A stretch of DNA of 64,000 bases from an uncultured Dehalococcoidia bacterium (lineage in GTDB: Bacteria > Chloroflexota > Dehalococcoidia > Lucifugimonadales > CAJWER01). The DNA lies in assembly GCA_964608025.1 (NCBI GenBank), contig CAZSLO010000023.1:193578-257577 (forward strand), read 5' to 3'. Shown here piece by piece: positions 8,424 to 52,869 of the stretch (the first letter of the stretch is position 1; every line of letters starts with the position of its first letter). The notes under the pieces were generated by a model, which had not been told where the DNA came from, ran no database searches, and saw only the letters and a program-made list of their open reading frames with translations. The translations under genes and the position numbers were made by a program.

Positions 8424-9203
8424 TTAATCTATGCCCAGCATCCGGTTAGCGTTGCCAAAGCAGATTGCTTGTAATGCCTCGTCACTTAATCCGCAATGGT
8501 GGAGGTGGTAAAGTTGGGGAGACATCGCTGAATATGGAAACCGAGATCCGAAAATAACGCGATCTGGCCCAATCGCTTCGATAGCGGATGTTATTCCCCC
8601 GGTGACCACAAACCTTGAGATTTCCATATCCAGATTTGGCAGATTTTTTAGCAATGGTAATGCCCATGAAGCGTCATTATATTTCACTTCGCTCAGCACC
8701 GCGGTGATGTCTTCCCTGGCTGACAAGGTGTCGTAGATATCACGGGGATCGATTGGATAGGTGTTTCCTAGTAATTGGTGTTCCACTGGTAGCCATACTG
8801 TTATTTTTGTCTCTGCGAGCCAGTCGAGCCAAGGTCCTAAAATCCAAGAACGAAAAGGGTAGTTGTGGAGACTTGGAAGCATCCTAATCGACCGGACACC
8901 CTCGGATTCTACATGCGAAGCTATCTCATCTAATTTGTCGAAACTTGGGTTACAAACGAATTGAGGGACGAAATCAGATGAATCTCGAATGGTCTCCATA
9001 AGCATTCGATTTCCTTCACCAGAATCATAAGTTATTGCGTGGGGGGAGTGGGCTACAGCGATATTAATACCCGCTCGTTTCATCTCGTTTCGGGTATCGG
9101 TAATTGATTCGATGCTTACTGGCATGTCATGCCGTCGGCCCAATGAAATATTCGCGTCAGTTACAGGAACAGATGGTTTGAAATCTAGCTTGACATCGCC
9201 CAT
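8424..9203 (-). CDS. Amidohydrolase-fold protein with degenerate metal site (start 9203 or 9281)
   Basis: Same fold layout as the neighbouring gene, but TDANISLG, VLSE and VIFGSRFP replace DxHxH, LAH and FGxD. Confidence 0.75.
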   Translation of the reverse strand: MGDVKLDFKPSVPVTDANISLGRRHDMPVSIESITDTRNEMKRAGINIAVAHSPHAITYDSGEGNRMLMETIRDSSDFVPQFVCNPSFDKLDEIASHVESEGVRSIRMLPSLHNYPFRSWILGPWLDWLAETKITVWLPVEHQLLGNTYPIDPRDIYDTLSAREDITAVLSEVKYNDASWALPLLKNLPNLDMEISRFVVTGGITSAIEAIGPDRVIFGSRFPYSAMSPQLYHLHHCGLSDEALQAICFGNANRMLGID

Positions 9204-9420
9204 TGTGATTTCCGCACGTTCATCTATTAACAGGGAGTTTAGCATAGAAACACTAGGCCCTGTCCGAAAATGATTATTCACAATGATCCCCTAGGTCATC
9301 ATTGAACAGGGAGTAAATTTAATATTGGAATTCTCAGGTGCAAAGTGGTCTAGGCATGATGTGCGAAAAACAGGACACTGATTAAATATTTATCCAATTC
9401 GCTATTCTGTTTAATCTAAC

Positions 9421-10116
9421 CTAACTTGACAGTGCACGCAGAACTCTCAGAATTTGCCCGGCGGCAGCCAGTATTGCAGCTTCAATCAAGGTTAACAGGG
9501 CGATAATCATAGTTGCGTCGAAGAAAAATCCTTCAGGAAACATCGCCAGAAGTAAATGGTGGCGGGGGTCCAGTTGCCATAAGTCATTGCTGAAACTAAT
9601 TATATGGAATGCTAAAAACAGCCTGTCGAATCCTAAAATTGATCCTAGTCCTATTGCAAACATGACTGCGAGTGTAAGCAGTCCACCGTAAGAAAGTAAC
9701 TGTAACGAGATTCGGATAACACCTGATCTAGCCAGGCCCACTGTAACGAGTAGGAAAGCTACTAAGTATGCCGCTGTAATGTACTGGACCAGGTAAGTTC
9801 CCTTAACCAATTGCTTTACATCTTTCATATGCAATATCTCTCTCTCGCTGTAGATACTGCGTCTAATTCCTCTTATGAAAATGCGGACATCCAAAATCTC
9901 GGAGTCATCGTTAAAGTAATTGCGAATTTGCAATCCAGCTTCTATGAGTTCGTCCAGTTCAATACCAGTCTTCTCCGGGATGTCATATTTATTGAATCCG
10001 TAGCTATATAGGGAAGGCCAATTAATAACTAGGCGGGTGTTGATTGTAATAAGTAACAACGGAATGAAAGCCACGAATAGAGAATAGGCCGCTACTTTTG
10101 ATATACGCATATCCAA
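9421..10116 (-). CDS. TIGR01906/DUF1461-family integral membrane protein
   Basis: EREILHMKDVKQL, FDRLFLAFHIISFSNDLWQLDP, MFPEGFF; four TM segments. Confidence 0.85.
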   Translation of the reverse strand: MDMRISKVAAYSLFVAFIPLLLITINTRLVINWPSLYSYGFNKYDIPEKTGIELDELIEAGLQIRNYFNDDSEILDVRIFIRGIRRSIYSEREILHMKDVKQLVKGTYLVQYITAAYLVAFLLVTVGLARSGVIRISLQLLSYGGLLTLAVMFAIGLGSILGFDRLFLAFHIISFSNDLWQLDPRHHLLLAMFPEGFFFDATMIIALLTLIEAAILAAAGQILRVLRALSS

Positions 10117-42446: not shown

Positions 42447-43223
42447 ATGGATCTAGGTATTAATGGGAAAGTAGCGCTTGTCACAGGAGGAAGTCGAGGC
42501 CTCGGATTTAACGCAGCGCTCTCATTGGCTAATGAAGGAGTGAATATAGCTATCTGTGGGCGCACAAAACAGACCTTGGACGATGCGGTTGCGGTAATCA
42601 AGGATCAGGGCGGATCGGCGGTTGGTATTGAAGCTGACGTGTCTGATACAGGATCACTCGAGACACTACACTTTCAAGTTATCGATGCGATTGGTCCAAT
42701 TGATATATTAGTCAACAATGTTGGTGGCAGCGGTGATACTTCTGATATTGGCGACACATCTCTGGATGATCTACGTACAGTCTTTGATCTCAATCTTTTT
42801 GGTAGCTATGAGCTGATGCGAATCGTTATACCCCACATGCGGCAACAGAAGTGGGGTAGGATTATAAATATAGCCTCGATATATGGACGTGAGCATGGAG
42901 GTAAGCTTTCATACATGTCTGCTAAAGCCGGTCTCATAGCTGCAACGAAACATGCAGCTCTAACCTTAGCGCCTGATGGAGTTTTGGTTAACAGTATAGC
43001 TCCAGGCTCGATTCAACATCCCGGGGGTAGTTGGGAGCGTTTTGAAAAGTCCAATCCATCTGATGTAGTCGATGAATTCATCAGCCGGAATCTTCCTATG
43101 GGTAAATGGGGTTGGCCTGAACCAGTAGGTGACATGGTGGCCTTCATGGCCTCTGAGCGTTTGGGCTTGATGACAGGGGCATGTGTAGTGATTGACGGCG
43201 GCCAAAGTCACTCTATGATCTAG
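42447..43223 (+). CDS. Short-chain dehydrogenase/reductase
   Basis: TGGSRGLG, NNVG, YMSAK, IAPG. Confidence 0.92.
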   Translation: MDLGINGKVALVTGGSRGLGFNAALSLANEGVNIAICGRTKQTLDDAVAVIKDQGGSAVGIEADVSDTGSLETLHFQVIDAIGPIDILVNNVGGSGDTSDIGDTSLDDLRTVFDLNLFGSYELMRIVIPHMRQQKWGRIINIASIYGREHGGKLSYMSAKAGLIAATKHAALTLAPDGVLVNSIAPGSIQHPGGSWERFEKSNPSDVVDEFISRNLPMGKWGWPEPVGDMVAFMASERLGLMTGACVVIDGGQSHSMI

Positions 43224-43304
43224 GGAGACAGATGTTAATTGAGTTTATTCGTGCACGGGGTAAGTAGTTGGGATATGTACGCGTTTAACAAAGCTTTTGT
43301 TTAT

Positions 43305-44303
43305 CTATGGGTTTCTAAGATTGGCACGTACTTGGTTTAGCACGAGAGGGTTAATGAGATTATCAGGCATTTGGCCTTGGAAAACGTTGACAACCTCTCC
43401 GGCTGCTCGTTCTTCGAGTTCGAGGACAGCTTCCTGAGAGAAGAACGCAGTATGAGGTGTGACTATTACATTTTCTAACTGGATGAGACGGTGATCTAGT
43501 GGTGGGTCTATGTCTACGATTACGTCCAGTCCTGCTCCTGCTATTTCACCCGAAATTAAGGCATCGTAGAGTGCATTTTCATCTATTAATCCACCCCTAG
43601 CACAGTTGATCAAGAATGCATCCGGTTTCATGATCGCTAACTCTTTCTTGCTGATCATGTTTTTTGTCTGAGGGATCAACGGTGAATGGATTGTTATGAA
43701 GTCTGATTCCCGTAGAAGTTGGTCCATATCGACGAGCCGTGCACCATCCGCAGCAGCTGATTCGGATGTTACAAATGGGTCTGAGGTCAACACATCTAGG
43801 CCAAACGAGAGAGCTTTTTTGGCTACTCCACGACCGATACGCCCAAATCCAACTACTCCAAGCTTCTTGCCATCAAGACGCATAATTCGCATACTTAGGC
43901 CTTCACTGCCCCACCCCTTGATTTTGGTTGCGCGGTCGAAGAATGTTAGACGTCTATTCCAATCTAGCAACATTCCGATGACGTGATCAGATACTTCAGG
44001 GATACAATAGTCAGGGACGTAAGTTACAATTATTCCTAGCTCAGTAGCAGTATCAACATCGATATTGTCGACACCTACCCCGTATCTACTGATCACCTGG
44101 CATTTTTCTGCAACTCTAATGACATTCTCAGTAACTTTTGCGAAACATGTAAGTATGGCGTCTACGTCTTTCGCTAATTTTGCAAGAGTATCTTCGGAAC
44201 CATCTGGTGCGACGACAACTTCTGCGTCTGCGGTGGCTAGTACCTTTTTTTCAGGCTCAAGACTGGGCCACACGTAGTCTGTTATAAGCACTTTTTTGGC
44301 CAT
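43305..44303 (-). CDS. D-2-hydroxyacid dehydrogenase (CtBP/SerA-like)
   Basis: RYGVGVDNID, GFGRIG, INCARG, GLDV, TPHTAF; GAGGGAG SD before ATG 44303. Confidence 0.9.
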   Translation of the reverse strand: MAKKVLITDYVWPSLEPEKKVLATADAEVVVAPDGSEDTLAKLAKDVDAILTCFAKVTENVIRVAEKCQVISRYGVGVDNIDVDTATELGIIVTYVPDYCIPEVSDHVIGMLLDWNRRLTFFDRATKIKGWGSEGLSMRIMRLDGKKLGVVGFGRIGRGVAKKALSFGLDVLTSDPFVTSESAAADGARLVDMDQLLRESDFITIHSPLIPQTKNMISKKELAIMKPDAFLINCARGGLIDENALYDALISGEIAGAGLDVIVDIDPPLDHRLIQLENVIVTPHTAFFSQEAVLELEERAAGEVVNVFQGQMPDNLINPLVLNQVRANLRNP

Positions 44304-44375
44304 AGTGATACTCCCTCGATAATTCCTAGAATCCCAAAGGTACACGAACTAGTGGATGATGGCTATGTTATACCT

Positions 44376-45998
44376 TCAATTATCTGGTTGAGCCATCGGT
44401 TTGAACATGCATCCCTCTACGAATATTTCAAAGAAGTCGGGCGTGGTCTCAAGTTCAACATGTTCAATCCTCGTAACCAATTTTTCGATCACGTCACGCA
44501 TCTTGATAGAGACTAGCATCAAAGTCGCACCTTCTAGGGCGGCATTACCTACTTTTTCAATCTTATCTGGAGGTACGTTTGCGATGAATCCAATGCTGGC
44601 CGCGTTACTGGTATTGACGTAATTTGCGAATCCACCAGCGAGGAACATTTTAGATATTTTCTGTGGAGAGATGCCAAAATGTCTCAGCACTATCCACTGT
44701 CCACTGTAGTTTGCGGATTTAGCCTGTGCTAGTGCACTAATATCCGAGCGCGAAAGCGACATTCCCTTGTCTGGCACGAAGAAGAATTCTTCATCTTGGT
44801 TTGGAAATACCCCGAGTTCGTTCATCTGGCCTGTACGCCTCAGTTCAGAGAGAAGATCTACTAGTCCTGAGCCACAGATTCCTTGGGGAGTCTTTTGTCC
44901 AATAGTGCGATACTTCACCAGCTCATTTTCGATTTCTATAGATTCTACTGCACCTTCATAACCCGGCATCCCATAAGTGATCTCACCTCCTTCGAAAGCC
45001 GGTCCTGCGGGGCAAGATGCGGTCATCATTCGGTGCCGATTGCCTACGACAACTTCGGTATTGGTGCCGACATCCACTAGCATAACGACATCTTCTTTTT
45101 CGTCCAGTCCGATAGCTAACAGATCAGCTGCCACGTCAGCTCCTACGTGACTTCCAATTAGAGGTCCGCTATAAACGTTGGCATTGGGAAATACCCTTAG
45201 GCCCATTTTTCTGGCGGACATGTTCAAAGAGGTTGTGGAACGCTTACCGTGCTCCATCTCAGTTTGGGTAATTGACTTGTACGGTTTTTGTCCAATGGAT
45301 TGTACGTCGATTCCGAATAGTAGATCACGCATGGTTGAATTACCCACTATGACTACATCATAGATTCTTCGCCGATGGAATCCTAACTGGCGGCTCATTT
45401 CGCCGATCTCGAAATTCAGTGCGGATAAAATTGCCTGTCGTAACTCCCCTGAGTAGTCTCCTCCATCGTATGAAATACGGTGCATTATGTCGCTTCCGCC
45501 GAATTTCTGGGTATTTTCAAAAGAGGATGTGTGAAGAGTTTCTCCTGTCTCTAGGTCAACCAGATTCATGACGACAGTGGTAGTCCCAATGTCAATCGCT
45601 AGTCCATAGATCATACCGACGTAAGCTTCCATGGGAGTATTTTTTATATACACGCTATCGCATTTCCGTACGGCCAGAGGGGCGAGGTCGACGTCTCTTT
45701 TTATAGAGTGCGTTAATATCTGTGGTTGACGACGTAGCACAGAGAATTCTATATTTGCGTCTAGGTCAACTGGATATACTTGGCATGCTAGTCGAAAATT
45801 TTCACTAAGGAACCCCTCTGAGTCTGTAGGAGGAGTGACAGCGTCAATTCCCTGTTTGATTTCCACGATACACTCGTGACACTTACCGCTTCTCCCGCAC
45901 GAAGTAGGTACGCGCACCCGAAGGGCATCAGCGTAGTCAAAGATACTTTTATCGGGATCTGCTTTTAGGGTTGTATCGCCGTAGATTAAAGGAGACAT
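44376..45998 (-). CDS. ASKHA/DUF4445 reductive activator of corrinoid proteins (RamA/RACE type) with N-terminal 2Fe-2S domain
   Basis: SCGRSGKCHEC...RLACQ, AIDIGTTT, HVGAD, DVGTNTE, CPAGPAFEG, GICGSG, LAGGF, GNAALEGA. Confidence 0.9.
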   Translation of the reverse strand: MSPLIYGDTTLKADPDKSIFDYADALRVRVPTSCGRSGKCHECIVEIKQGIDAVTPPTDSEGFLSENFRLACQVYPVDLDANIEFSVLRRQPQILTHSIKRDVDLAPLAVRKCDSVYIKNTPMEAYVGMIYGLAIDIGTTTVVMNLVDLETGETLHTSSFENTQKFGGSDIMHRISYDGGDYSGELRQAILSALNFEIGEMSRQLGFHRRRIYDVVIVGNSTMRDLLFGIDVQSIGQKPYKSITQTEMEHGKRSTTSLNMSARKMGLRVFPNANVYSGPLIGSHVGADVAADLLAIGLDEKEDVVMLVDVGTNTEVVVGNRHRMMTASCPAGPAFEGGEITYGMPGYEGAVESIEIENELVKYRTIGQKTPQGICGSGLVDLLSELRRTGQMNELGVFPNQDEEFFFVPDKGMSLSRSDISALAQAKSANYSGQWIVLRHFGISPQKISKMFLAGGFANYVNTSNAASIGFIANVPPDKIEKVGNAALEGATLMLVSIKMRDVIEKLVTRIEHVELETTPDFFEIFVEGCMFKPMAQPDN

Positions 45999-46066
45999 AG
46001 GAGATTCGACTATGGCCTGTAAATTCTATCCAGTTCGTAGGCTACCCTGAATTGTGAATTGATGCA

Positions 46067-46318
46067 TTAGATTTGCCAGGCACTTCTGTAGTCGAGGTTG
46101 TCACTTCCTGAACATATGTAAGGTTGTCCAATTGGGACGTCCCTGTCTTGATTTCGACATCCGAAACTTGCAGTGCATAAGTTGGCGGCATTTTTGTAAG
46201 GGCAACGCCAAGCGGAAACTTCGTCGACTGTACCAGAGATGTTTTTAAATATGCCATAAAGCCTGTCAATACTTGCTTTATACTGCTTTTGTTCAGCATT
46301 TTGGTTCATTTGGTCCAA
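46067..46318 (-). CDS. Small 4-Cys hypothetical protein within the corrinoid cluster (start 46318 or 46309)
   Basis: RCPYKN...CTASFGCRNQ...ICSG; co-oriented between the corrinoid protein and activator genes. Confidence 0.7.
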   Translation of the reverse strand: MDQMNQNAEQKQYKASIDRLYGIFKNISGTVDEVSAWRCPYKNAANLCTASFGCRNQDRDVPIGQPYICSGSDNLDYRSAWQI

Positions 46319-46405
46319 AATATATATTGCCTCTGCTGTGACAAAAAAAAGTGGTTGGTTAGATATGTGTGTAATACAGTAACAGTGTTCAATCAGCTGT
46401 TTGGT

Positions 46406-47161
46406 TTAAGGATTGTTGATACTCTGAATAAGCTCTTTTGCCATATCAACGCAAGCGATAGCATCTTTACCGTAGCCGTCTGCCCCCATGTCTTCAGCGA
46501 ATTCTTGAGTAACAGGGGCGCCTCCGACCATAATTCTGACCTCTTCTCGTAGACCTTCATCCTCAAAAGCCTGTATGGTACGTCCCATGTTAGGCATCGT
46601 TGTAGTAAGAAGAGCTGACATACCTAGGACCTTCGCTTCGTGTTCCTGTACCGCGTCGATGAATTCCTCAGAACTGGTATCTACTCCTAGGTCGTGGACA
46701 ATGAATCCAGACCCACGCAGCATCATGATACAAAGATTCTTGCCTATATCGTGAAGGTCTCCCTTGACGGTTCCCATGATTACGGTACCAATGGGTTCGA
46801 TGCCAGATTCAGATAGGATCGGTTCTATGTGGGCCATACCTGCTTTCATCGCCCGTGCCGCAACAAGTACTTCAGGTACGAAGATCACATTATCCCGGAA
46901 CTTTATTCCTACGATTGCCATTCCAGCGATCAAGCCGTCATCAAGGATATCGTTAGCTGAAAAGCCGTCATCTAGGGCCTTGCGAGTAAGACGATCTACT
47001 TCATGTTGATCGCCAGTGATTAAGGCGTAAGCTGTTTCATGCATCAACGGGTCTTTACCCTCGAACAATGACTTAATATGGTCTAGTTCGGAAGGTTTAG
47101 TTATGTATTGAAATTCGTTTACCAGCCCGTCGTGGTTTGTCACCATTTGGAAACCCCGCAT
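46406..47161 (-). CDS. Stand-alone corrinoid (B12-binding) protein (start 47161 or 47146)
   Basis: Cap domain GLIAGMAIVG...FVPEVL; GTVKGDLHDIGKN (DxHxxG), SALLTTT, MVGGAPV. Confidence 0.93.
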   Translation of the reverse strand: MRGFQMVTNHDGLVNEFQYITKPSELDHIKSLFEGKDPLMHETAYALITGDQHEVDRLTRKALDDGFSANDILDDGLIAGMAIVGIKFRDNVIFVPEVLVAARAMKAGMAHIEPILSESGIEPIGTVIMGTVKGDLHDIGKNLCIMMLRGSGFIVHDLGVDTSSEEFIDAVQEHEAKVLGMSALLTTTMPNMGRTIQAFEDEGLREEVRIMVGGAPVTQEFAEDMGADGYGKDAIACVDMAKELIQSINNP

Positions 47162-47241
47162 TTCATTTCTAAGGACATTTATTATTCTGGGATTCTTGTC
47201 ACAATGTCAATTAAGTTGCATATTGGATTTGATCTGACTTC

Positions 47242-48279
47242 TTATCCCAGCCGCCCGTCGCGAAACGCCTGAATGTAATTCATGCAGAAATCGTCGCGGC
47301 CTTCAAGCATGTCTATTGTAAATTTAACTCGCTCAGAGTTCATATCTAAAGAGAACACATCTTCTAACCTTGTTTGTATAGGGTCAATCAGTCCAGAATC
47401 AACCCCGGCATTTATGGCTAGGCGAATGAAAGTTTGATTAATCAATTTTCTATTAGGCATGCCGAATGAAACGTTGCTTAGACCCATCCCAATATGGAGA
47501 TTCCCAAACTCGTCCCTTATTCTAGACACCGCGTTAAAGTAGTGATTACCGTACTGAGGATCGACAGAGATAGGAAAAACTACCGCATCGCAGAATATAT
47601 CGTCTTTGGATATCCCACCTGAAAGGGCTGTTTCAATGATCGAGTTTGCGTTTTCGACCCGCTGATCATCATCCTCCGGCATCCCAGCTTCACCCGTTGC
47701 CAAAACGATTACTCTAGCGTCATATTCCTTGGCCATCTCTAGAACCTCTGGTCGCTCAAGAGAGAGGGAGTTAACCAAGGGTTTCCCCGCTTTCCCATCG
47801 TACTCGGAAAGTCCGGCAGCGATGATCTCAGAGTTCGAAGAATCAATACTTGGAGGAACTTGAGAAGATTCCTGCACGATATTGATTGCCCAGCGCATGG
47901 CTCTCTTTTGTGTTTCAAGATCATAGTGAACTTCATCGACGTTTACATCGAGATACTTGGCGCCGAACCTAGTCTGTTTTCTCACCTCTGATCGGATATA
48001 CGATGCCCCTTGCTCTCGTTCGTTTGGGTCGTCACTGATACCCTTCATAAATGCAATCATAAAGTGTTTGATCTGACCTTGTTCATATGGCTGTGTTTTC
48101 TTGAACCAATCTGGAACGGTCAGGTACTGGTGTTTTTCGTCATCTCCCCTGAATGGCACTACTTCAGTACCATCTTCAAGAAGCTTTATCCTACGACCGT
48201 TCCTTAAAAGGATACGGGTTGCGTGTATATTTTCTCCTACAATATTGAACTGGTCGGGGGATTTGATTACGGGCTGCAT
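47242..48279 (-). CDS. Pterin-binding methyltetrahydrofolate:corrinoid methyltransferase (MeTr/AcsE-like)
   Basis: IVGENIHAT, YLDVN, SIDS, LVNS, GLSNVSFGMPNRKLIN, IDP. Confidence 0.88.
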   Translation of the reverse strand: MQPVIKSPDQFNIVGENIHATRILLRNGRRIKLLEDGTEVVPFRGDDEKHQYLTVPDWFKKTQPYEQGQIKHFMIAFMKGISDDPNEREQGASYIRSEVRKQTRFGAKYLDVNVDEVHYDLETQKRAMRWAINIVQESSQVPPSIDSSNSEIIAAGLSEYDGKAGKPLVNSLSLERPEVLEMAKEYDARVIVLATGEAGMPEDDDQRVENANSIIETALSGGISKDDIFCDAVVFPISVDPQYGNHYFNAVSRIRDEFGNLHIGMGLSNVSFGMPNRKLINQTFIRLAINAGVDSGLIDPIQTRLEDVFSLDMNSERVKFTIDMLEGRDDFCMNYIQAFRDGRLG

Positions 48280-49334
48280 CAGTTCTCGTCTGCAGCATTG
48301 GACTGGTGGTCGTTACACCAATCGCGAACGGCCTTGGGGATTTCGAGGAGATTTTCAAGCTTGGTAGCCAGTGGTATAGCACATTCAGGAGCGATCATGT
48401 CTATACCAGCATCCATACACTTGTAAACCTCTTCTCTTACTTCTTCAGGACCTTTGGAATACAGGGTTACCGGATTGTTGATGTTACCCACCAGACCGAT
48501 CCGGTCGCCAACTATTTTTCTGGCTTCGGCCGGGTCGTTCATTGAATCAAAGTGAAACATAGCCATACCATTCTGGGCAATATAGTCCATTCGATCCAAT
48601 GTGTTACCGCATATATGGAGTATCAGTGGTACATCAAGGCATTCTGCCATTTCTTGGTGAATATCCAAAAGAAACCGTCGATAGTACTCGCCGCTAACAA
48701 GATCGCCTGTAGCATGGTCAGGAAAGGTTAAGGCATCGGCTCCTGCGTCGATCTGTGCCTGTCCGAACAGGACAGAGATTTCCTTGAGCTTGTCCAGACA
48801 TTGCATAGTTAAATTAGGGTCGTCGATCGTCATGAGTAGAAAAGGTTCCACGCCGAATACGTGATATGCGAGTGTCCAGGGACCCATCGTCTTGCCAAAA
48901 ATGGCTACCTCCTCACCATACTCTTTCTTCAGTATTGATATCGACCTAGTTATGGCGATTGAGTCCTTATGTTCTAAGAATCCAGATGGAATTCGTACGT
49001 CATCAGGCCCTTTCCATATAGGATTAGTCATGCGTACTGTGGGCCAGTTATCTTTCTGTTCCCATTGCATATCGCATCCTAGAGCAGAGGACTCTTGAAT
49101 AATGCTGAAATACGGCATAATTGCGTCGAAGCCCAGCTCTGTGTAACCAGTTGCGGCCAACCGGGCATTCATCTCTGGGTCTCGATTGGCGTCAGGAAAT
49201 GGCGCGTCCATCATGTCCATAAGTTCTACTGTTGCAACGTTGGTTGGATTAGCTACAGGCGGTCGGTCGACCGGTTTCCCTTCAAGCGCGTTTAGGACTC
49301 GCTCCCGAGAGGTCATAGTTTCTGTAAATGTCAT
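48279..49334 (-). CDS. MtaA/CmuA-family (URO-D fold) methylcobamide:thiol methyltransferase
   Basis: MTSRERV, ALGC, GPWTLA, AQIDAGAD, LHICG and APEC (H-x-C...C Zn ligands), GNIN; TGATG coupling to the MeTr gene. Confidence 0.87.
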   Translation of the reverse strand: MTFTETMTSRERVLNALEGKPVDRPPVANPTNVATVELMDMMDAPFPDANRDPEMNARLAATGYTELGFDAIMPYFSIIQESSALGCDMQWEQKDNWPTVRMTNPIWKGPDDVRIPSGFLEHKDSIAITRSISILKKEYGEEVAIFGKTMGPWTLAYHVFGVEPFLLMTIDDPNLTMQCLDKLKEISVLFGQAQIDAGADALTFPDHATGDLVSGEYYRRFLLDIHQEMAECLDVPLILHICGNTLDRMDYIAQNGMAMFHFDSMNDPAEARKIVGDRIGLVGNINNPVTLYSKGPEEVREEVYKCMDAGIDMIAPECAIPLATKLENLLEIPKAVRDWCNDHQSNAADEN

Positions 49335-49371
49335 TATTGCCTCCTCTGCAAGGTCTGACTAAAGAGCGAAT

Positions 49372-50043
49372 TCACGTTGGTGGCGTGAAGCCCAAGGTTC
49401 CTGTGGTCATTTGACCACGTAGGGAGTCGGATTCTAACATGTCTTGTGTGCCAGTCACGTTTCGGGCATAAGGTAGTAATAGACGTATTAGCTGATCGTG
49501 GCTTACCCCACAAGAGAAGATTACCCCGCCGTCCTCGCTTCTATCCATCTCTCCATAACGAACGAATCCAGCCGTAATTGCACGAATGCGGCTCGCATAG
49601 TTGTTGACCTCTCCCTCGCCAGTGATGTAATAGCTTACCCTACCGTCTGATATTCTGGACTCGAATCCTAGCATTAGGTCAGAACGTAAGTCTTTTACAT
49701 AACCTTCGGGGTATGTGAAGCCTGGATCCTTTTCTACAGCCTGCATCAGCAGGAACTTTAGGGGTCTTTGATGGATGTCGCCGCAATGTGGTTGCAGTTG
49801 GTTGTGAGTTCCGTTGACCGGCTGTAGGTCACCAAGCGCGGCTAGCTGGTCTCGGATTCGGCGAATTCGTTCCTCGACCCCTTTCTTATGGCTAAAGGTC
49901 CATACAGTTGCTATTTGATCTTTGGCATAAAGTCCTACGGATATATTGTGGAAATTCGGATCTATCGGCACCAGCTCTAGGCATCTTCCATACCTATTAA
50001 TTACATTGTTAACATTGAATTTATTGGATTCAGGTACTTTCAT
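49372..50043 (-). CDS. Hypothetical protein with internal duplication (2x CGxxH)
   Basis: RIRRI...HCGDIH..LKFLL and RIRAI...SCGVSH..LIRLLL; GAGG SD. Confidence 0.8.
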   Translation of the reverse strand: MKVPESNKFNVNNVINRYGRCLELVPIDPNFHNISVGLYAKDQIATVWTFSHKKGVEERIRRIRDQLAALGDLQPVNGTHNQLQPHCGDIHQRPLKFLLMQAVEKDPGFTYPEGYVKDLRSDLMLGFESRISDGRVSYYITGEGEVNNYASRIRAITAGFVRYGEMDRSEDGGVIFSCGVSHDQLIRLLLPYARNVTGTQDMLESDSLRGQMTTGTLGFTPPT

Positions 50044-50065
50044 ATTATGTATTCCTCGATATCTA

Positions 50066-50968
50066 TTATCCTGACCTTATTACCTCAGATAATGCGCGAA
50101 TATGTCTTGGGGTTGTACCACAACATCCACCTAGAATATCGATTCCTTGGCCTGCCATGTACTTGAAGTAAGTGGCCATGAATTCCGGCGTTTCTGGATA
50201 CACGATTTGACCCTGACGAATGTCAGGGATACCAGCATTGGAGTGTATTAGTATAGGGGCTGAGGTTGCGTCTCTCATCTCCTTAGCAATTTCTAACATC
50301 GTTTCAATACCATTTCCGCAATTCGCCCCTACTATATCGGCACCGCTTTTAACAAGCTCTTCTGCGGCTTGTCGCGGGGTTGTTCCCATCATTGTAAAGA
50401 AGCCACGTGGCCCCTTGTCAAACGTCATTGTGGCCATGATGGTAAGTTCAGTATTTTCTTTTGCTGCTTCGATGGCTAAAAACGATTCCTCGAGCGAGTA
50501 CATTGTTTCAATCAAGATGGCGTCTGCCCCGCCTTCTGAAAGAGCAGTTATTTGCTCAGCGAAAGCGTCTTTCATTTCGAGTTCGCTGACATTACCTAGT
50601 GGGTCTAGGAATTCTCCGGTTGGCCCGACGCTGCCCACCACGAAACCCTGTTGGGGGGCTTGGCTTTTTACATGCTTGGCGGAGAGGAGGTTAAATTCCC
50701 TGACTCGGTTTTCGTGCCCGTATTTCTTTAGCATAAATCGATTTCCACCGAACGAGGCTGTAAGCACCAAGTCTGAGCCTGCCTCAAAGTATTCTGCTGC
50801 CATCTTTTTAATCAATCGAGGCTCTGTAGCATTCATTTCTTCGGGACATCCCCCTGGTTCCAACCCGTGCGATTGTAACCAAGTTCCTGTAGCGCCATCT
50901 GAAATTAACGGCCTTGACGATGAGATCTGCTCTAAGATCCCGGTTCCAGAGTTTTTAGTCCCGGTCAT
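50066..50968 (-). CDS. Homocysteine S-methyltransferase domain protein (stand-alone Hcy module of a split MetH)
   Basis: SDGATGT, GSVGPTG, IETM, GANCG, SNAGIP, GGCCGTTP (three Zn Cys). Confidence 0.92.
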   Translation of the reverse strand: MTGTKNSGTGILEQISSSRPLISDGATGTWLQSHGLEPGGCPEEMNATEPRLIKKMAAEYFEAGSDLVLTASFGGNRFMLKKYGHENRVREFNLLSAKHVKSQAPQQGFVVGSVGPTGEFLDPLGNVSELEMKDAFAEQITALSEGGADAILIETMYSLEESFLAIEAAKENTELTIMATMTFDKGPRGFFTMMGTTPRQAAEELVKSGADIVGANCGNGIETMLEIAKEMRDATSAPILIHSNAGIPDIRQGQIVYPETPEFMATYFKYMAGQGIDILGGCCGTTPRHIRALSEVIRSG

Positions 50969-51305
50969 CGTTAATCCAATGGTCTATTGCTCCGGGAGTA
51001 GGATTTCGGTTCCCGGATAAGTGTAGATCACGTATGCGAGCTACGAAGTCGAGAGGTAAGCCGCCATTAATACGACCCGCCGTATATTCTGCAGCGTCGT
51101 TGGCGGATCCATCTATATCTAGGTAATTGCCCCATTCCCATGCGTTCAGGTAATCGTCAGTCCCGGCACTTCCGTCAAACATGGATATGGCATCGGCTGC
51201 CTCTTGAAATCTCGGTTCTAGAGGTTTCGAGATTGTGCCATAGCTATCTGTAGCCTGAACTTGTACAGGTATTTCCTTCCAGTACATTACCCGAACTTTG
51301 GCCAT
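50955..51305 (-). CDS. 'Virulence factor' (Virulence_fact/CvfA-like) domain protein
   Basis: MYWKEIPVQV...RFQEAADAISM...TDDYLNAW signature; GGAGG SD; overlaps the Hcy-methyltransferase gene. Confidence 0.75.
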   Translation of the reverse strand: MAKVRVMYWKEIPVQVQATDSYGTISKPLEPRFQEAADAISMFDGSAGTDDYLNAWEWGNYLDIDGSANDAAEYTAGRINGGLPLDFVARIRDLHLSGNRNPTPGAIDHWINDDRD

Positions 51306-51412
51306 TTCTAAAATTACTACCTCCGGTACCTATTTCGGTATCTATTGTCGGAATGCCTATTATATCGAGTTATAGTTGGGCCGGTCGAACTGCTAGAGAA
51401 GAATAGCCGAAG

Positions 51413-51441
51413 TTGACCATATAAATCTCGATTGTTACACT
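51413..51441 (+). promoter_or_regulatory. Sigma70 promoter of the amidase gene (near-leaderless)
   Basis: TTGACC, 17 nt, TACACT preceded by TG; ATG 9 nt downstream. Confidence 0.65.
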
Positions 51442-51450
51442 CAAGTTGAT

Positions 51451-52869
51451 ATGGAAAACGAACTGGAATTTGCTCCTGCTTGGAAAATCCGACAACTTGT
51501 AAGTGATGGTGAGATTTCCCCGGTTGAACTGACAAAAATGTTCCTCGACCGGATTGATTCCCTTGATTCTCATCTCAACTCTTACCTAACTGTAACGGCT
51601 GATAGGGCCCTTGCCGCTGCGCATGTAGCCGAAGAAGCAGTGTTGAATGGTGATCACCTAGGACTTCTTCATGGAATACCTGTATCGATCAAGGATTTAG
51701 AGATGTCTGCAGGAGTCCGCACTACTGGTGGCTCTCTTTTATTTGAAGATCGCGTGCCAAGTGTTGATTCGTCCGTCGTTCAGAGGGTTAAATCTGCGGG
51801 AGCGATTATACTTGGTAAGACAAATACGCCCGAATTCGGATTGCTTGGCCATACTCAAAATCGACTTGGTGACCATTGTCGAAATCCATGGAATACTGAC
51901 CGAACTACAGGAGGGTCGAGTGGTGGTGCCGGGGCCGCTGTAGCTGCTGGACTCTGCTCCTTGGCGACAGGTAGCGATGGTGGAGGATCAATACGGATTC
52001 CTGCTTCCTTCTGTGGGATATACGGCATTAAGCCTACCCAGGGAAGGGTACCGTTGTATGCAGGTACTCCAGGGACGCCTTTCGCTAATCACTTCAGCCA
52101 GTCTGGACCTATGAGTAGGACTGTTAAAGATTCTGCAATATTACTCCAAGCCTTGGCAGGCCACGACACGAATGATGTGAATAGCCTTAGGGTAGTACCC
52201 GGTGATTATATAGCTGCTGTAGATGACGATATCGGGCAGCTAAAGATTGCGTGGAGTCCGGATTATGGATATGCGGCGGTTGAACCTGAAATTATTTCTA
52301 AGTGTGAGCAAGCAGTGCGTGTATTTGAAGAACTAGGTTGTATTGTTGAAGAAGTAGATCTAGATATCAAATCACCCTTTGAGGAATTTTGGACCTTGTT
52401 CACTGCGGTATCAAATGCTAGATATGAATCACTTATCGGGGGCAACTCCGATTTGTTAACTGACTATGGACGCGAAGCCATTGAGTCTGGCGCTCGGGTC
52501 ACTGGACCCGAATATGCTCGCGCTTTAGGGGTACGTGCAAATTTGATCTCACGGTTTGCAACTATATTTGACAAATACGACTTGCTTGTGTCCCCAACTC
52601 TTTCAGTAGGAGCTTTCCCTGTAGGGGAACCACCTACTGAAATTGCAGGCAAACCAGTACATCCATTTTGGGGATTCTTACCATTTACATATCCGATTAA
52701 TATGATTGGTAATCCAGCAGCCAGCATACCCGCTGGTTTCACAGCCGAAGGACTCCCGGTAGGCCTCCACATAGTAGGCCAGTGGGGTGATGAAGAGACT
52801 GTGGTTGCTGCATCTTCTGCCTTTGAAAATGCGAGGCCTTGGAACAACATCCAGCCACCCATTTCGTAG
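51451..52869 (+). CDS. Amidase signature family enzyme
   Basis: [32 protein letters not shown] (Ser-cisSer-Lys triad). Confidence 0.92.

Follow-up and report, generated by a model that had tools for sequence, protein, structure and literature searches.

How would a methyl group enter a gene cluster in which three different methyltransferases surround one corrinoid protein, in a marine bacterium whose genome shows no substrate methyltransferase of the MttB or MtaB type? This question is raised by a stretch of 64,000 nucleotides (nt), hereafter the window, from an uncultured Dehalococcoidia bacterium (assembly GCA_964608025.1, contig CAZSLO010000023.1, positions 193,578 to 257,577), whose minus strand carries nine co-oriented genes between window positions 43305 and 51305. 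In the dark ocean, few bacteria are as abundant as the SAR202-type Chloroflexota. The host had been placed among them by an earlier reading of the letters alone (the sequence-only reading), and this placement agrees with the labels of close homologues, which are given as Chloroflexi, SAR202 cluster or Dehalococcoidia bacterium. The stretch occurs in marine plankton and seawater metagenomes of many studies, and the host genome (G000; 2.08 Mb, 94% complete) encodes the haem-copper oxidase COX1. The sequence-only reading had regarded the cluster as a split methionine synthase joined to an MtaA-like zinc methyltransferase, which might be the entry point of an undescribed one-carbon (C1) and organosulfur route.

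What we propose here is a corrinoid-dependent methyl-transfer hub built on one corrinoid protein. This protein would be held in the Co(I) state by a RACo/RamA-type activase, probably aided by two small proteins, one with a Virulence_fact domain and one with four conserved cysteines (4-Cys protein), and up to three methyltransferases would dock on it. The MtaA-like Zn(His-Cys-Cys) enzyme, in complex with an unannotated protein of 223 amino acids (aa) named here unk223, would act as the methyl entry module (methyltransferase I, MT I); the homocysteine S-methyltransferase would move the methyl group onto homocysteine to give methionine; and the pterin enzyme, where present, would connect the corrinoid to methyltetrahydrofolate (CH3-H4folate), so that methyl flow into the folate C1 pool would be possible. 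According to this proposal, the cluster would be a variant of the MtgBCDE-type hub in which the MtaA-like enzyme and unk223 replace MttB, and the methyl group would come from a methylated sulfur or selenium compound, with a methyl halide as the minority option. We give this reading, in which we infer the substrate, the sense in which the methyl group moves and what unk223 does, about an even chance of being right.

The host has two B12-binding genes, one of them in the cluster. Since the second one encodes a protein of 134 aa and lies beside an acyl-CoA dehydrogenase and a glyoxalase/epimerase-type gene, that is, in a mutase-like context, the corrinoid protein of the cluster would be the one serving all three methyltransferases, as the sequence-only reading had proposed. 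It consists of a B12 cap and a Rossmann domain with the DLHDIG (DxHxxG) motif at residues 135-140, and is 46% identical to the cobalamin-binding protein of the Sinorhizobium meliloti mtg cluster. The homocysteine enzyme has the Cys217/Cys282/Cys283 triad, scores 253 bits with PRK07534, and matches the MetH model TIGR02082 over residues 4-313, whereas the pterin enzyme scores 206.7 bits with PRK07535 and is 35% identical to the S. meliloti methyl-THF:cobalamin methyltransferase. The window thus has the parts of a split MetH, or MtgCDE, as separate proteins (PF02574, PF00809, and PF02607 plus PF02310 with its DxHxxG motif), with a RamA/RACo-type activase in place of the S-adenosylmethionine (SAM) reactivation domain and no full-length MetH in the genome. 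Elsewhere in the host, Pterin_bind occurs only in FolP, no long MetH-type open reading frame (ORF) is present, and the cluster copy of S-methyl_trans is the one complete gene of its kind. Neither MttB (PF06253) nor MtaB was found in this genome, 94% of which is covered, so the absence claimed by the sequence-only reading holds to that extent. Judging by this gene content, the cluster is the only B12-type methionine synthase of the host.

Other host genes also touch on methyl transfer. A second homocysteine methyltransferase gene seems to have left a remnant on contig C12 (68636-68911; locus L125), where an in-frame TAG separates two short S-methyl_trans matches. Three short (about 350 aa) Meth_synt_2 paralogues, similar to the core of MetE, are encoded at C22:38365-39333, C17:10950-11978 and C23:112891-113913, and these could draw on methyl-corrinoid too. 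MTHFR-like genes are two, the stronger one on contig C5 and a weak one (58.5 bits) at C23:186612-187232, about 7 kb before the start of the window.

The MtaA-like protein is the centre of the question. It clears the cut-offs of the MtaA/CmuA family model (TIGR01463; 261.6 bits, with 235.4 needed) and of the PRK06252 subfamily model "methylcobalamin:coenzyme M methyltransferase" (NF004889; 264.4 against 244), and falls short of the equivalog models for MtaA (NF040654; 232.4 against 400), MtbA (NF041608; 202.7 against 600) and HemE (TIGR01464; 75.2 against 302.95). Its best match in the PDB is MtaA from Methanosarcina mazei (4ay7; E 7e-53, 183 bits), with uroporphyrinogen decarboxylases coming next at E 1e-13 or worse. 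The zinc ligands His240, Cys242 and Cys318 align with the HxC and C of 4ay7; both cysteines are invariant, and the histidine is invariant or conserved in at least 90% of sequences, in three alignments, two of them diverse (A2, A3) and one closer (A4). Such a His-Cys-Cys site marks the S/Se-methyltransferases of the UroD superfamily, among which MtaA, MtbA and MtsA are about 30% identical to each other (bioRxiv 10.1101/2023.07.31.551370).

A homologue search in 1.84 billion representatives gave 2872 matches, 185 of them below 1e-30, from which trees of 96 rows (FastTree) and 66 rows (IQ-TREE, "quick") were built, with CmuA and Escherichia coli HemE from plasmid records, a UroD protein from P. 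acidaminophilum and the second UroD gene of the host as named references. The SAR202-type orthologues, including one Acidobacteriota copy, form a tight clade (SH-aLRT, a likelihood-ratio branch support, 100), which is nested in a 32-row clade (support 99) of 37-50%-identical proteins from uncultured bacteria. Where homologues could be traced to a source, they come from uncultured Limnochordia, Firmicutes, Chloroflexota and Bathyarchaeia, and their labels say only "MtaA/CmuA family". All four references lie outside the 32-row clade on long branches, and the grouping apart from E. coli HemE agrees with the MtaA-type assignment of the sequence-only reading, against a true uroporphyrinogen decarboxylase. 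Rows outside the 32-row clade score higher on the MtaA model (300-360 bits), and the 10 representatives scanned all stayed below the MtaA equivalog cut-off. Within the clade, P0139 is a fusion with B12-binding domains, an argument for direct corrinoid chemistry of the MtaA-like enzyme; other members are fused to MtrH or to dehydroquinate synthase. The second URO-D gene of the host is very divergent (110 bits; C4:26166-27140, locus L123:4158-5159) and adjoins trpD and trpE, with no corrinoid gene near.

The distribution of the genes across related genomes carries most of the argument. Among 41 related genomes, which are kin and whose counts are not independent events, an MtaA-like orthologue (E<1e-170) is present in 29, with one further genome giving a weak paralogue match only. 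The cluster-type corrinoid protein is present in exactly the same 29, and neither gene was found in the other 12, so there are no discordant genomes. In five of these 12, a B12-binding match lies inside an ORF of 1162-1215 aa. A plain split MetH, that is, a cluster-type corrinoid protein without the MtaA-like gene, was found in none of the 41. The gene for unk223 follows the same pattern, being present in 28 of the 29 carriers and in none of the 12 non-carriers (concordance 40/41). The concordance in 41/41 genomes and the P0139 fusion are indirect support for a possible exchange of methyl groups between the MtaA-like enzyme and the corrinoid protein.

The neighbourhood is equally stable. The gene set around the MtaA-like gene is kept in all 18 of the relatives' 20-kb loci studied, where the MtaA-like protein is 72-91% identical and the homocysteine enzyme 53-70%. 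At least 582 species-representative genomes contain a relative, according to a scan made with the closer alignment (A4), which returned near orthologues only; the best 80 loci (76-90% identical) were studied, and these belong mostly to Dehalococcoidia, SAR202 or Chloroflexota, with four from Acidobacteriota. Counting genes within 9 kb of the MtaA-like gene, numbers which are lower bounds since some loci are cut by contig ends, unk223 was found in 72, the homocysteine methyltransferase in 67, the Virulence_fact gene and the corrinoid protein in 62 each, the 4-Cys protein in 61, the RACo activase in 45, the pterin methyltransferase in 34 and the 2-hydroxyacid dehydrogenase in 21. Even in the seven loci with a lone MtaA-like gene, unk223 was found elsewhere in the genome in all seven cases, adjoining the homocysteine gene. 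The MtaA-like gene is the most conserved of the cluster, with a median identity of 78.6% over the 80 loci, compared to 60% for the homocysteine and pterin enzymes. No other function stood out as frequently linked when the ORFs of these loci were clustered: SDR and DUF4268 genes occur in 13 and 15 loci, respectively, and the frequent minus-strand "families" are shadow ORFs. This arrangement is far beyond chance, and the conservation of the MtaA-like gene beside split-MetH genes, which the sequence-only reading had left to be checked, is thereby established.

Co-location is not required for all parts of the system. In a genus of the same family, g2 (G001, G005, G007, G009, G011-G014), the corrinoid gene lies hundreds of kb away or on another contig, apart from the block formed by the Virulence_fact, homocysteine, unk223, MtaA-like and pterin genes. 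In the Acidobacteriota, the order is Virulence_fact, unk223, MtaA-like, pterin, corrinoid, 4-Cys and RACo, and the MtaA-like gene of the four loci (L105, L106, L110 and L111; match 9001-10035 in each) is 76-77% identical to that of the window. The L105 copy is nested inside the Chloroflexota clade, which suggests that the whole cluster may have been transferred between phyla.

The pterin enzyme behaves differently from the other methyltransferases. When 19 chromosome-level genomes whose cluster has no pterin gene within 9 kb were checked, 12 had Pterin_bind within an ORF of 1176-1330 aa, that is, MetH-sized; five had a cluster-like pterin methyltransferase gene (346-372 aa) elsewhere; and two (G044 and G045) had a FolP-like gene only, with no MetH-sized ORF, separate pterin methyltransferase, MtrH or MetE-family gene. 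The constant elements would then be the MtaA-like enzyme, unk223 and the corrinoid protein, while the pterin enzyme appears as the least conserved methyltransferase and not as part of the core. This constant core with an optional pterin enzyme makes the cluster more than a split MetH, and the phrase "split methionine synthase joined to MtaA" was too simple for a cluster which often coexists with a MetH-sized ORF.

The other constant element of the core, unk223, had been listed by the sequence-only reading as an unknown protein with CGxxH motifs. The motifs are indeed there (C86-H90 and C178-H182), and what that reading missed is the role now predicted for the protein as partner of the MtaA-like enzyme. 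No match was found in Pfam even at E 10, in NCBIfam or in the ESM Atlas, and tblastn found none in plasmids. Homologues number 789, with a Pfam domain in none of the 120 listed, and those with a name in their source are all "hypothetical protein". Cys21 is invariant, and the C-terminal tail is strongly conserved yet disordered in the model. An AlphaFold (AF2) model from 17 orthologues is confident (pLDDT, the per-residue confidence, 84.7; pTM, the confidence in the overall fold, 0.79) and predicts an alpha/beta fold made of two beta-beta-beta-alpha-beta-beta-alpha repeats, for which Foldseek found no match in the PDB at E<=0.001. With a confident model and no solved relative, this family is the most original element of the cluster.

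The prediction of a complex between unk223 and the MtaA-like enzyme gave a score of 0.88, against 0.00 for the best of three controls; 58 of 80 solved complexes and 2 of 110 mismatched pairs come as high as this mark, counts that are only rough, as own alignments were used. Runs agree in at least 85% of contacts, with a partner pLDDT of at least 84. In the model, unk223 residues 19-21 and 207-219, including the conserved tail (209-219), meet the enzyme at its zinc ligands 242 and 318-319, so unk223 is predicted to bind the MtaA-like enzyme physically over the zinc site, a complex suggested by modelling. A separate observation concerns P0193 (345 aa, on a 195-kb contig), where one ORF joins a divergent unk223-like region, 28% identical to repeat 1, to roughly the first 120 residues of an MtaA-like protein, which match residues 6-109 of the enzyme in the window at 78% identity. 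Such an ORF may be a fusion that exists in nature, or it may stem from a frameshift or a wrong gene call and be an artefact.

In which direction would the methyl group flow? Where no folate module is present, some other methyl donor must serve the homocysteine enzyme through the corrinoid, and the MtaA-like enzyme is the sole candidate in the cluster. Methyl entry is favoured because only a donor-side role fits every architecture: with the pterin enzyme, beside a MetH-sized ORF, and without both. Comparative genomics has therefore strengthened the suggestion of the sequence-only reading that the MtaA-like enzyme is the entry point, with substrate and direction being the parts that we deduce rather than observe.

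A bolder form of the methyl-entry reading is that the MtaA-like enzyme and unk223, the corrinoid protein and the homocysteine methyltransferase would form a methionine synthase, as yet undescribed, with which aerobic marine bacteria would make methionine with B12 but independently of folate. The methyl group would be taken directly from dimethyl sulfide (DMS), methanethiol or methylmercaptopropionate (MMPA), unk223 would be a new-fold subunit shaping the zinc site, and access of the hub to the folate pool would be added by the pterin enzyme. We hold this form to be rather doubtful.

The reverse direction is the alternative that survives best. Here, the pterin enzyme would load the corrinoid from CH3-H4folate, and the MtaA-like enzyme and unk223 would use the resulting CH3-Co(III) to methylate a thiol or selenol, turning sulfide into methanethiol or methanethiol into DMS, or methylating a thiol cofactor. 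The closest solved relative, 4ay7, is precisely a methylcobalamin:coenzyme M (CoM) methyltransferase, the corresponding subfamily model is passed, and a His-Cys-Cys site suits thiolate activation; such an exit would be workable for the cluster of the window and for those of Acidobacteriota, both of which have the pterin enzyme. However, the pterin enzyme is missing within 9 kb in 46 of the 80 loci, and 14 of the 19 checked genomes encode no separate one anywhere, so that an exit-only role would leave most clusters without a methyl donor, the homocysteine enzyme being acceptor-side. Additionally, no ComA-type gene for CoM synthesis was found in the host genome. We consider this alternative unlikely.

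An ordinary split methionine synthase would do without any new substrate: the MtaA-like enzyme and unk223 would be either a CH3-H4folate:corrinoid module that has escaped recognition, or an accessory, regulatory or without catalysis of its own. A host without MetH does need the cluster for B12-type methionine synthesis, and G044 and G045 keep MTHFR-like genes without a recognised methyltransferase that uses methyl-THF. Kountz and Balskus also allow for an MtaA-like protein being an H4folate methyltransferase yet to be discovered (bioRxiv 10.1101/2023.07.31.551370). Contrary to this, a folate-side role would be redundant in the 34 of 80 loci whose operon has the canonical pterin enzyme, and would leave unexplained an invariant His-Cys-Cys zinc site that, by the same preprint and by what is known of MetH, has no role in folate chemistry. 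The alphaproteobacterial split MetH functions without an MtaA-like gene (PMC12478193), and the extreme conservation of the MtaA-like enzyme argues for catalysis. This makes the ordinary split enzyme quite an unlikely explanation.

Methyl halides are present in seawater, and the MtaA-like enzyme might work as the N-terminal domain of CmuA does, moving the methyl group of CH3Cl, CH3Br or CH3I to the corrinoid and from there to folate or homocysteine. CmuA of Methylorubrum extorquens CM4 keeps H-x-C...C at the same positions in a pairwise alignment, and P0139, within the clade, has a CmuA-like fusion of UroD and B12-binding domains. Nevertheless, CmuA is only 24% identical (44 bits, E 6e-9, against 183 bits to MtaA) and lies on a long branch outside the clade, and no cmuB- or cmuC-like neighbour was seen in the ORF clustering of the 80 loci, all of which makes halide entry improbable. 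Finally, SAR202 bacteria are thought to degrade recalcitrant organic matter, for which an MT I acting on the methoxy groups of lignin-derived aromatics, as in OdmB, VdmB and MtoB systems, might be imagined. Even though the four-part architecture (UroD-family MT I, corrinoid protein, pterin methyltransferase II and activase) matches (PMC8630106), this O-demethylase explanation, a first reading dropped on the zinc ligands, is the least probable, since such enzymes have one or both cysteines replaced and are about 17% identical to MtaA-like proteins (bioRxiv 10.1101/2023.07.31.551370), whereas here all three ligands are kept (a comparison made with the OdmB/VdmB type from its description, not from an O-demethylase sequence) and the match to MtaA is strong.

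Several points weigh against methyl entry from a methyl-sulfur compound, the reading that we prefer. The nearest characterised enzymes, MtaA and MtbA, run the opposite way, from methyl-Co to a thiol, and the trees hold no characterised MtaA, MtbA, MtsA, MtpA or Mlp sequences, for which the NCBIfam scores and the PDB match stand as proxies. The cluster has no linked transporter and no linked gene for the catabolism of a methyl-sulfur compound, and the match to methanethiol oxidase is below the cut-off. In the model, unk223 covers the zinc face, where the corrinoid protein presumably docks, so it could be a regulator or a plug instead of a catalytic partner. The MetH calls in the genomes without a pterin gene were made from ORF length and one domain rather than from a full domain scan. 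G044 and G045 keep, in addition to their MTHFR-like genes, a second stand-alone S-methyl_trans gene, and are thus no proof of a folate-independent route through the cluster. Lastly, the Acidobacteriota clusters have no local homocysteine gene, with three to four copies elsewhere in the genome.

The preferred reading, a hub with methyl entry through the MtaA-like enzyme, has its closest parallel in the MtgBCDE hub of Ruegeria pomeroyi, S. meliloti and other marine Proteobacteria. In Ruegeria, genetics has shown that MtgC and MtgD are required both for methionine synthesis and for the demethylation of glycine betaine by an MttB-type enzyme (Mausz et al. 2025, PMC12478193). As in the window, a stand-alone corrinoid protein serves methionine synthesis and substrate demethylation, with a homocysteine module, a bidirectional pterin module and RamA-type reactivation, and MetH is absent in most carriers (PMC12478193). 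A Virulence_fact gene is also found in S. meliloti, in addition to the corrinoid and pterin proteins compared above. Contrary to that hub, where the MttB-family MtgB acts on glycine betaine, the window has an MtaA-type zinc enzyme with unk223; DUF1638 (PF07796) is absent, with no match at E<=1, a 4-Cys protein belongs to the set, many of the clusters lack the pterin module, and the hosts are Chloroflexota and Acidobacteriota. In its accessible part, PMC12478193 mentions neither of these phyla nor MtaA, and its Dataset S2, with more than 600 marine genomes, might list Chloroflexota. Because of the Ruegeria precedent, the route suggested by the sequence-only reading would be undescribed as a variant, and its one-corrinoid principle is not wholly new logic.

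Other known systems share parts of this design. The three-part split MetH of Phaeobacter inhibens has separate homocysteine, pterin and B12 proteins, and a RamA/DUF4445-type activase instead of the SAM reactivation domain, but neither an MtaA-like nor an unk223 gene in the parts described (Price et al. 2018, bioRxiv 10.1101/192971, via PMC12478193). The methanogen systems MtsA/MtsB, MtpA/MtpC and MtaA/MtbA have the same UroD fold with Zn(His-Cys-Cys) and move methyl groups between a corrinoid protein and a thiol or thioether, MtpA being described as an MMPA:cob(I)alamin methyltransferase (bioRxiv 10.1101/548461); unlike them, the present host has an aerobic respiratory chain and no ComA that could be found, and its acceptor modules are for homocysteine and folate, not CoM. 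The type 1 mlp clusters, proposed to act on methyl-S and methyl-Se compounds and to feed methionine as well, have two or three Mlps and no homocysteine or folate methyltransferase, and are described only from obligate anaerobes (Kountz and Balskus, bioRxiv 10.1101/2023.07.31.551370); the window, with a single MtaA-like gene and unk223, homocysteine and pterin modules and a host bearing COX1, is of another kind. As for the CmuA/CmuB pathway of M. extorquens CM4 (pCMU01), it also belongs to an aerobe and carries methyl groups to folate by a UroD-type methyltransferase and a corrinoid, CmuA being fused to its corrinoid domain, whereas the MtaA-like protein of the window stands alone.

The nine genes are listed in Table 1. 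All of them are real ORFs, and the order, the overlaps (14 nt at 50955-50968 and 1 nt at 48279) and the domain calls of the sequence-only reading were borne out by the ORF listing and by the Pfam and NCBIfam searches.

Table 1. Genes of the methyl-transfer cluster in the window, in descending order of position.
Feature	Position	Strand	Details
Virulence_fact (PF13769) small protein	50955..51305	-	116 aa; Pfam 44.8 bits
Homocysteine S-methyltransferase module, MtgE-like	50066..50968	-	300 aa; PF02574 S-methyl_trans 218.8 bits
unk223, unannotated, predicted partner of the MtaA-like enzyme	49372..50043	-	223 aa; no family
MtaA/CmuA-family (UroD-superfamily) Zn methyltransferase	48279..49334	-	351 aa; URO-D 223.6 bits
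Pterin-binding methyl-THF:corrinoid methyltransferase, MtgD-like, optional module	47242..48279	-	345 aa; Pterin_bind PF00809 84.7 bits
Corrinoid protein	46406..47161	-	251 aa; B12-binding_2 + B12-binding (PF02607 + PF02310)
4-Cys protein, between corrinoid and activase genes	46067..46309	-	80 aa; ATG at 46309
RACo/RamA-type ATP-dependent corrinoid reductive activase	44376..45998	-	540 aa; Fer2 + Raco_middle + RACo_C_ter
D-2-hydroxyacid dehydrogenase, PGDH/glyoxylate-reductase-like	43305..44345	-	346 aa; 2-Hacid_dh_C 189.9 bits

The activase (AcsV-like, 318.7 bits) carries an N-terminal [2Fe-2S] ferredoxin domain with C34, C40, C43 and C72. Two observations suggest that the Virulence_fact protein belongs to the corrinoid activation machinery: on a plasmid of Terrarubrum flagellatum (L113:8001-10283), this domain is fused N-terminally to an activase of the architecture Fer2-RACo_linker-Raco_middle-RACo_C_ter, and in S. 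meliloti its gene adjoins those for MTHFR, the methyl-THF:cobalamin methyltransferase and an ASKHA activase. Its role is most likely that of an accessory of corrinoid reductive activation and not one in virulence. In the 4-Cys protein, C36, C45, C51 and C66 are invariant in 13 of 13 aligned orthologues; its sole family match is a weak one to DUF7162 (E 0.01), its AF2 model is poor (pLDDT 66.7, pTM 0.35), and no similarity was found to the 112-aa ORF in the equivalent position in S. meliloti. A longer overlapping frame, 46042-46299, was ruled out as the 4-Cys gene, as it has no cysteine at all. The dehydrogenase scores 264.7 bits with TIGR01327, below the cut-off of 454, and is loosely linked to the cluster and probably outside the machine.

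Regarding expression, no Rfam family, B12 and SAM riboswitches included, was found in 42500-52000, and scans for promoter-like sites (22 against 14.2 expected) and terminator-like sites (4 against 7.6 expected) are uninformative on regulation. Three RNA libraries hold contigs that cover, with at least 95% identity, parts of the genes for RACo, the corrinoid protein, the pterin enzyme, the MtaA-like enzyme and unk223, and one contig spans the junction between the last two; a shared transcript cannot be read from such contigs, and DNA may have been carried over into the libraries. Some parts of the stretch have no RNA-library contig, which has no bearing on expression. Upstream of the cluster, a divergent amidase-signature gene (51451-52869, plus strand) has homologues near the cluster in several relatives and is present in 13 of the 80 species loci, its functional link to the cluster not being evident. 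Long antisense ORFs opposite conserved genes, such as the one at 50220-51020 (plus strand, 266 aa) facing the homocysteine methyltransferase, recur across loci, most likely as shadow ORFs cast by coding sequence that is itself strongly conserved.

A full-text literature search found no paper joining SAR202 and MtaA; the literature joining SAR202 and "methionine synthase" is unrelated to the cluster, and for SAR202 and corrinoids, none of the matches listed concerns it by title or abstract. Whatever the substrate may be, two facts correct the annotation "split MetH": a MetH-sized ORF coexists with the cluster in 12 of the 19 genomes, and the corrinoid protein was never found without the MtaA-like gene in the 41. 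A cobalamin-dependent DMS methyltransferase has been proposed for aerobic DMS degraders and, in the accessible account, never identified (PMC6548844). If the folate-independent reading were true, the synthase would be a candidate for this missing enzyme. And if the MtaA-like module loads the methyl groups of methyl-sulfur compounds or methyl halides onto a corrinoid in aerobes, it would add a B12-dependent sink for climate-relevant volatiles, a pathway that was postulated as early as the 1990s would gain a gene candidate open to testing, and organosulfur cycling would be tied to methionine supply and B12 demand.

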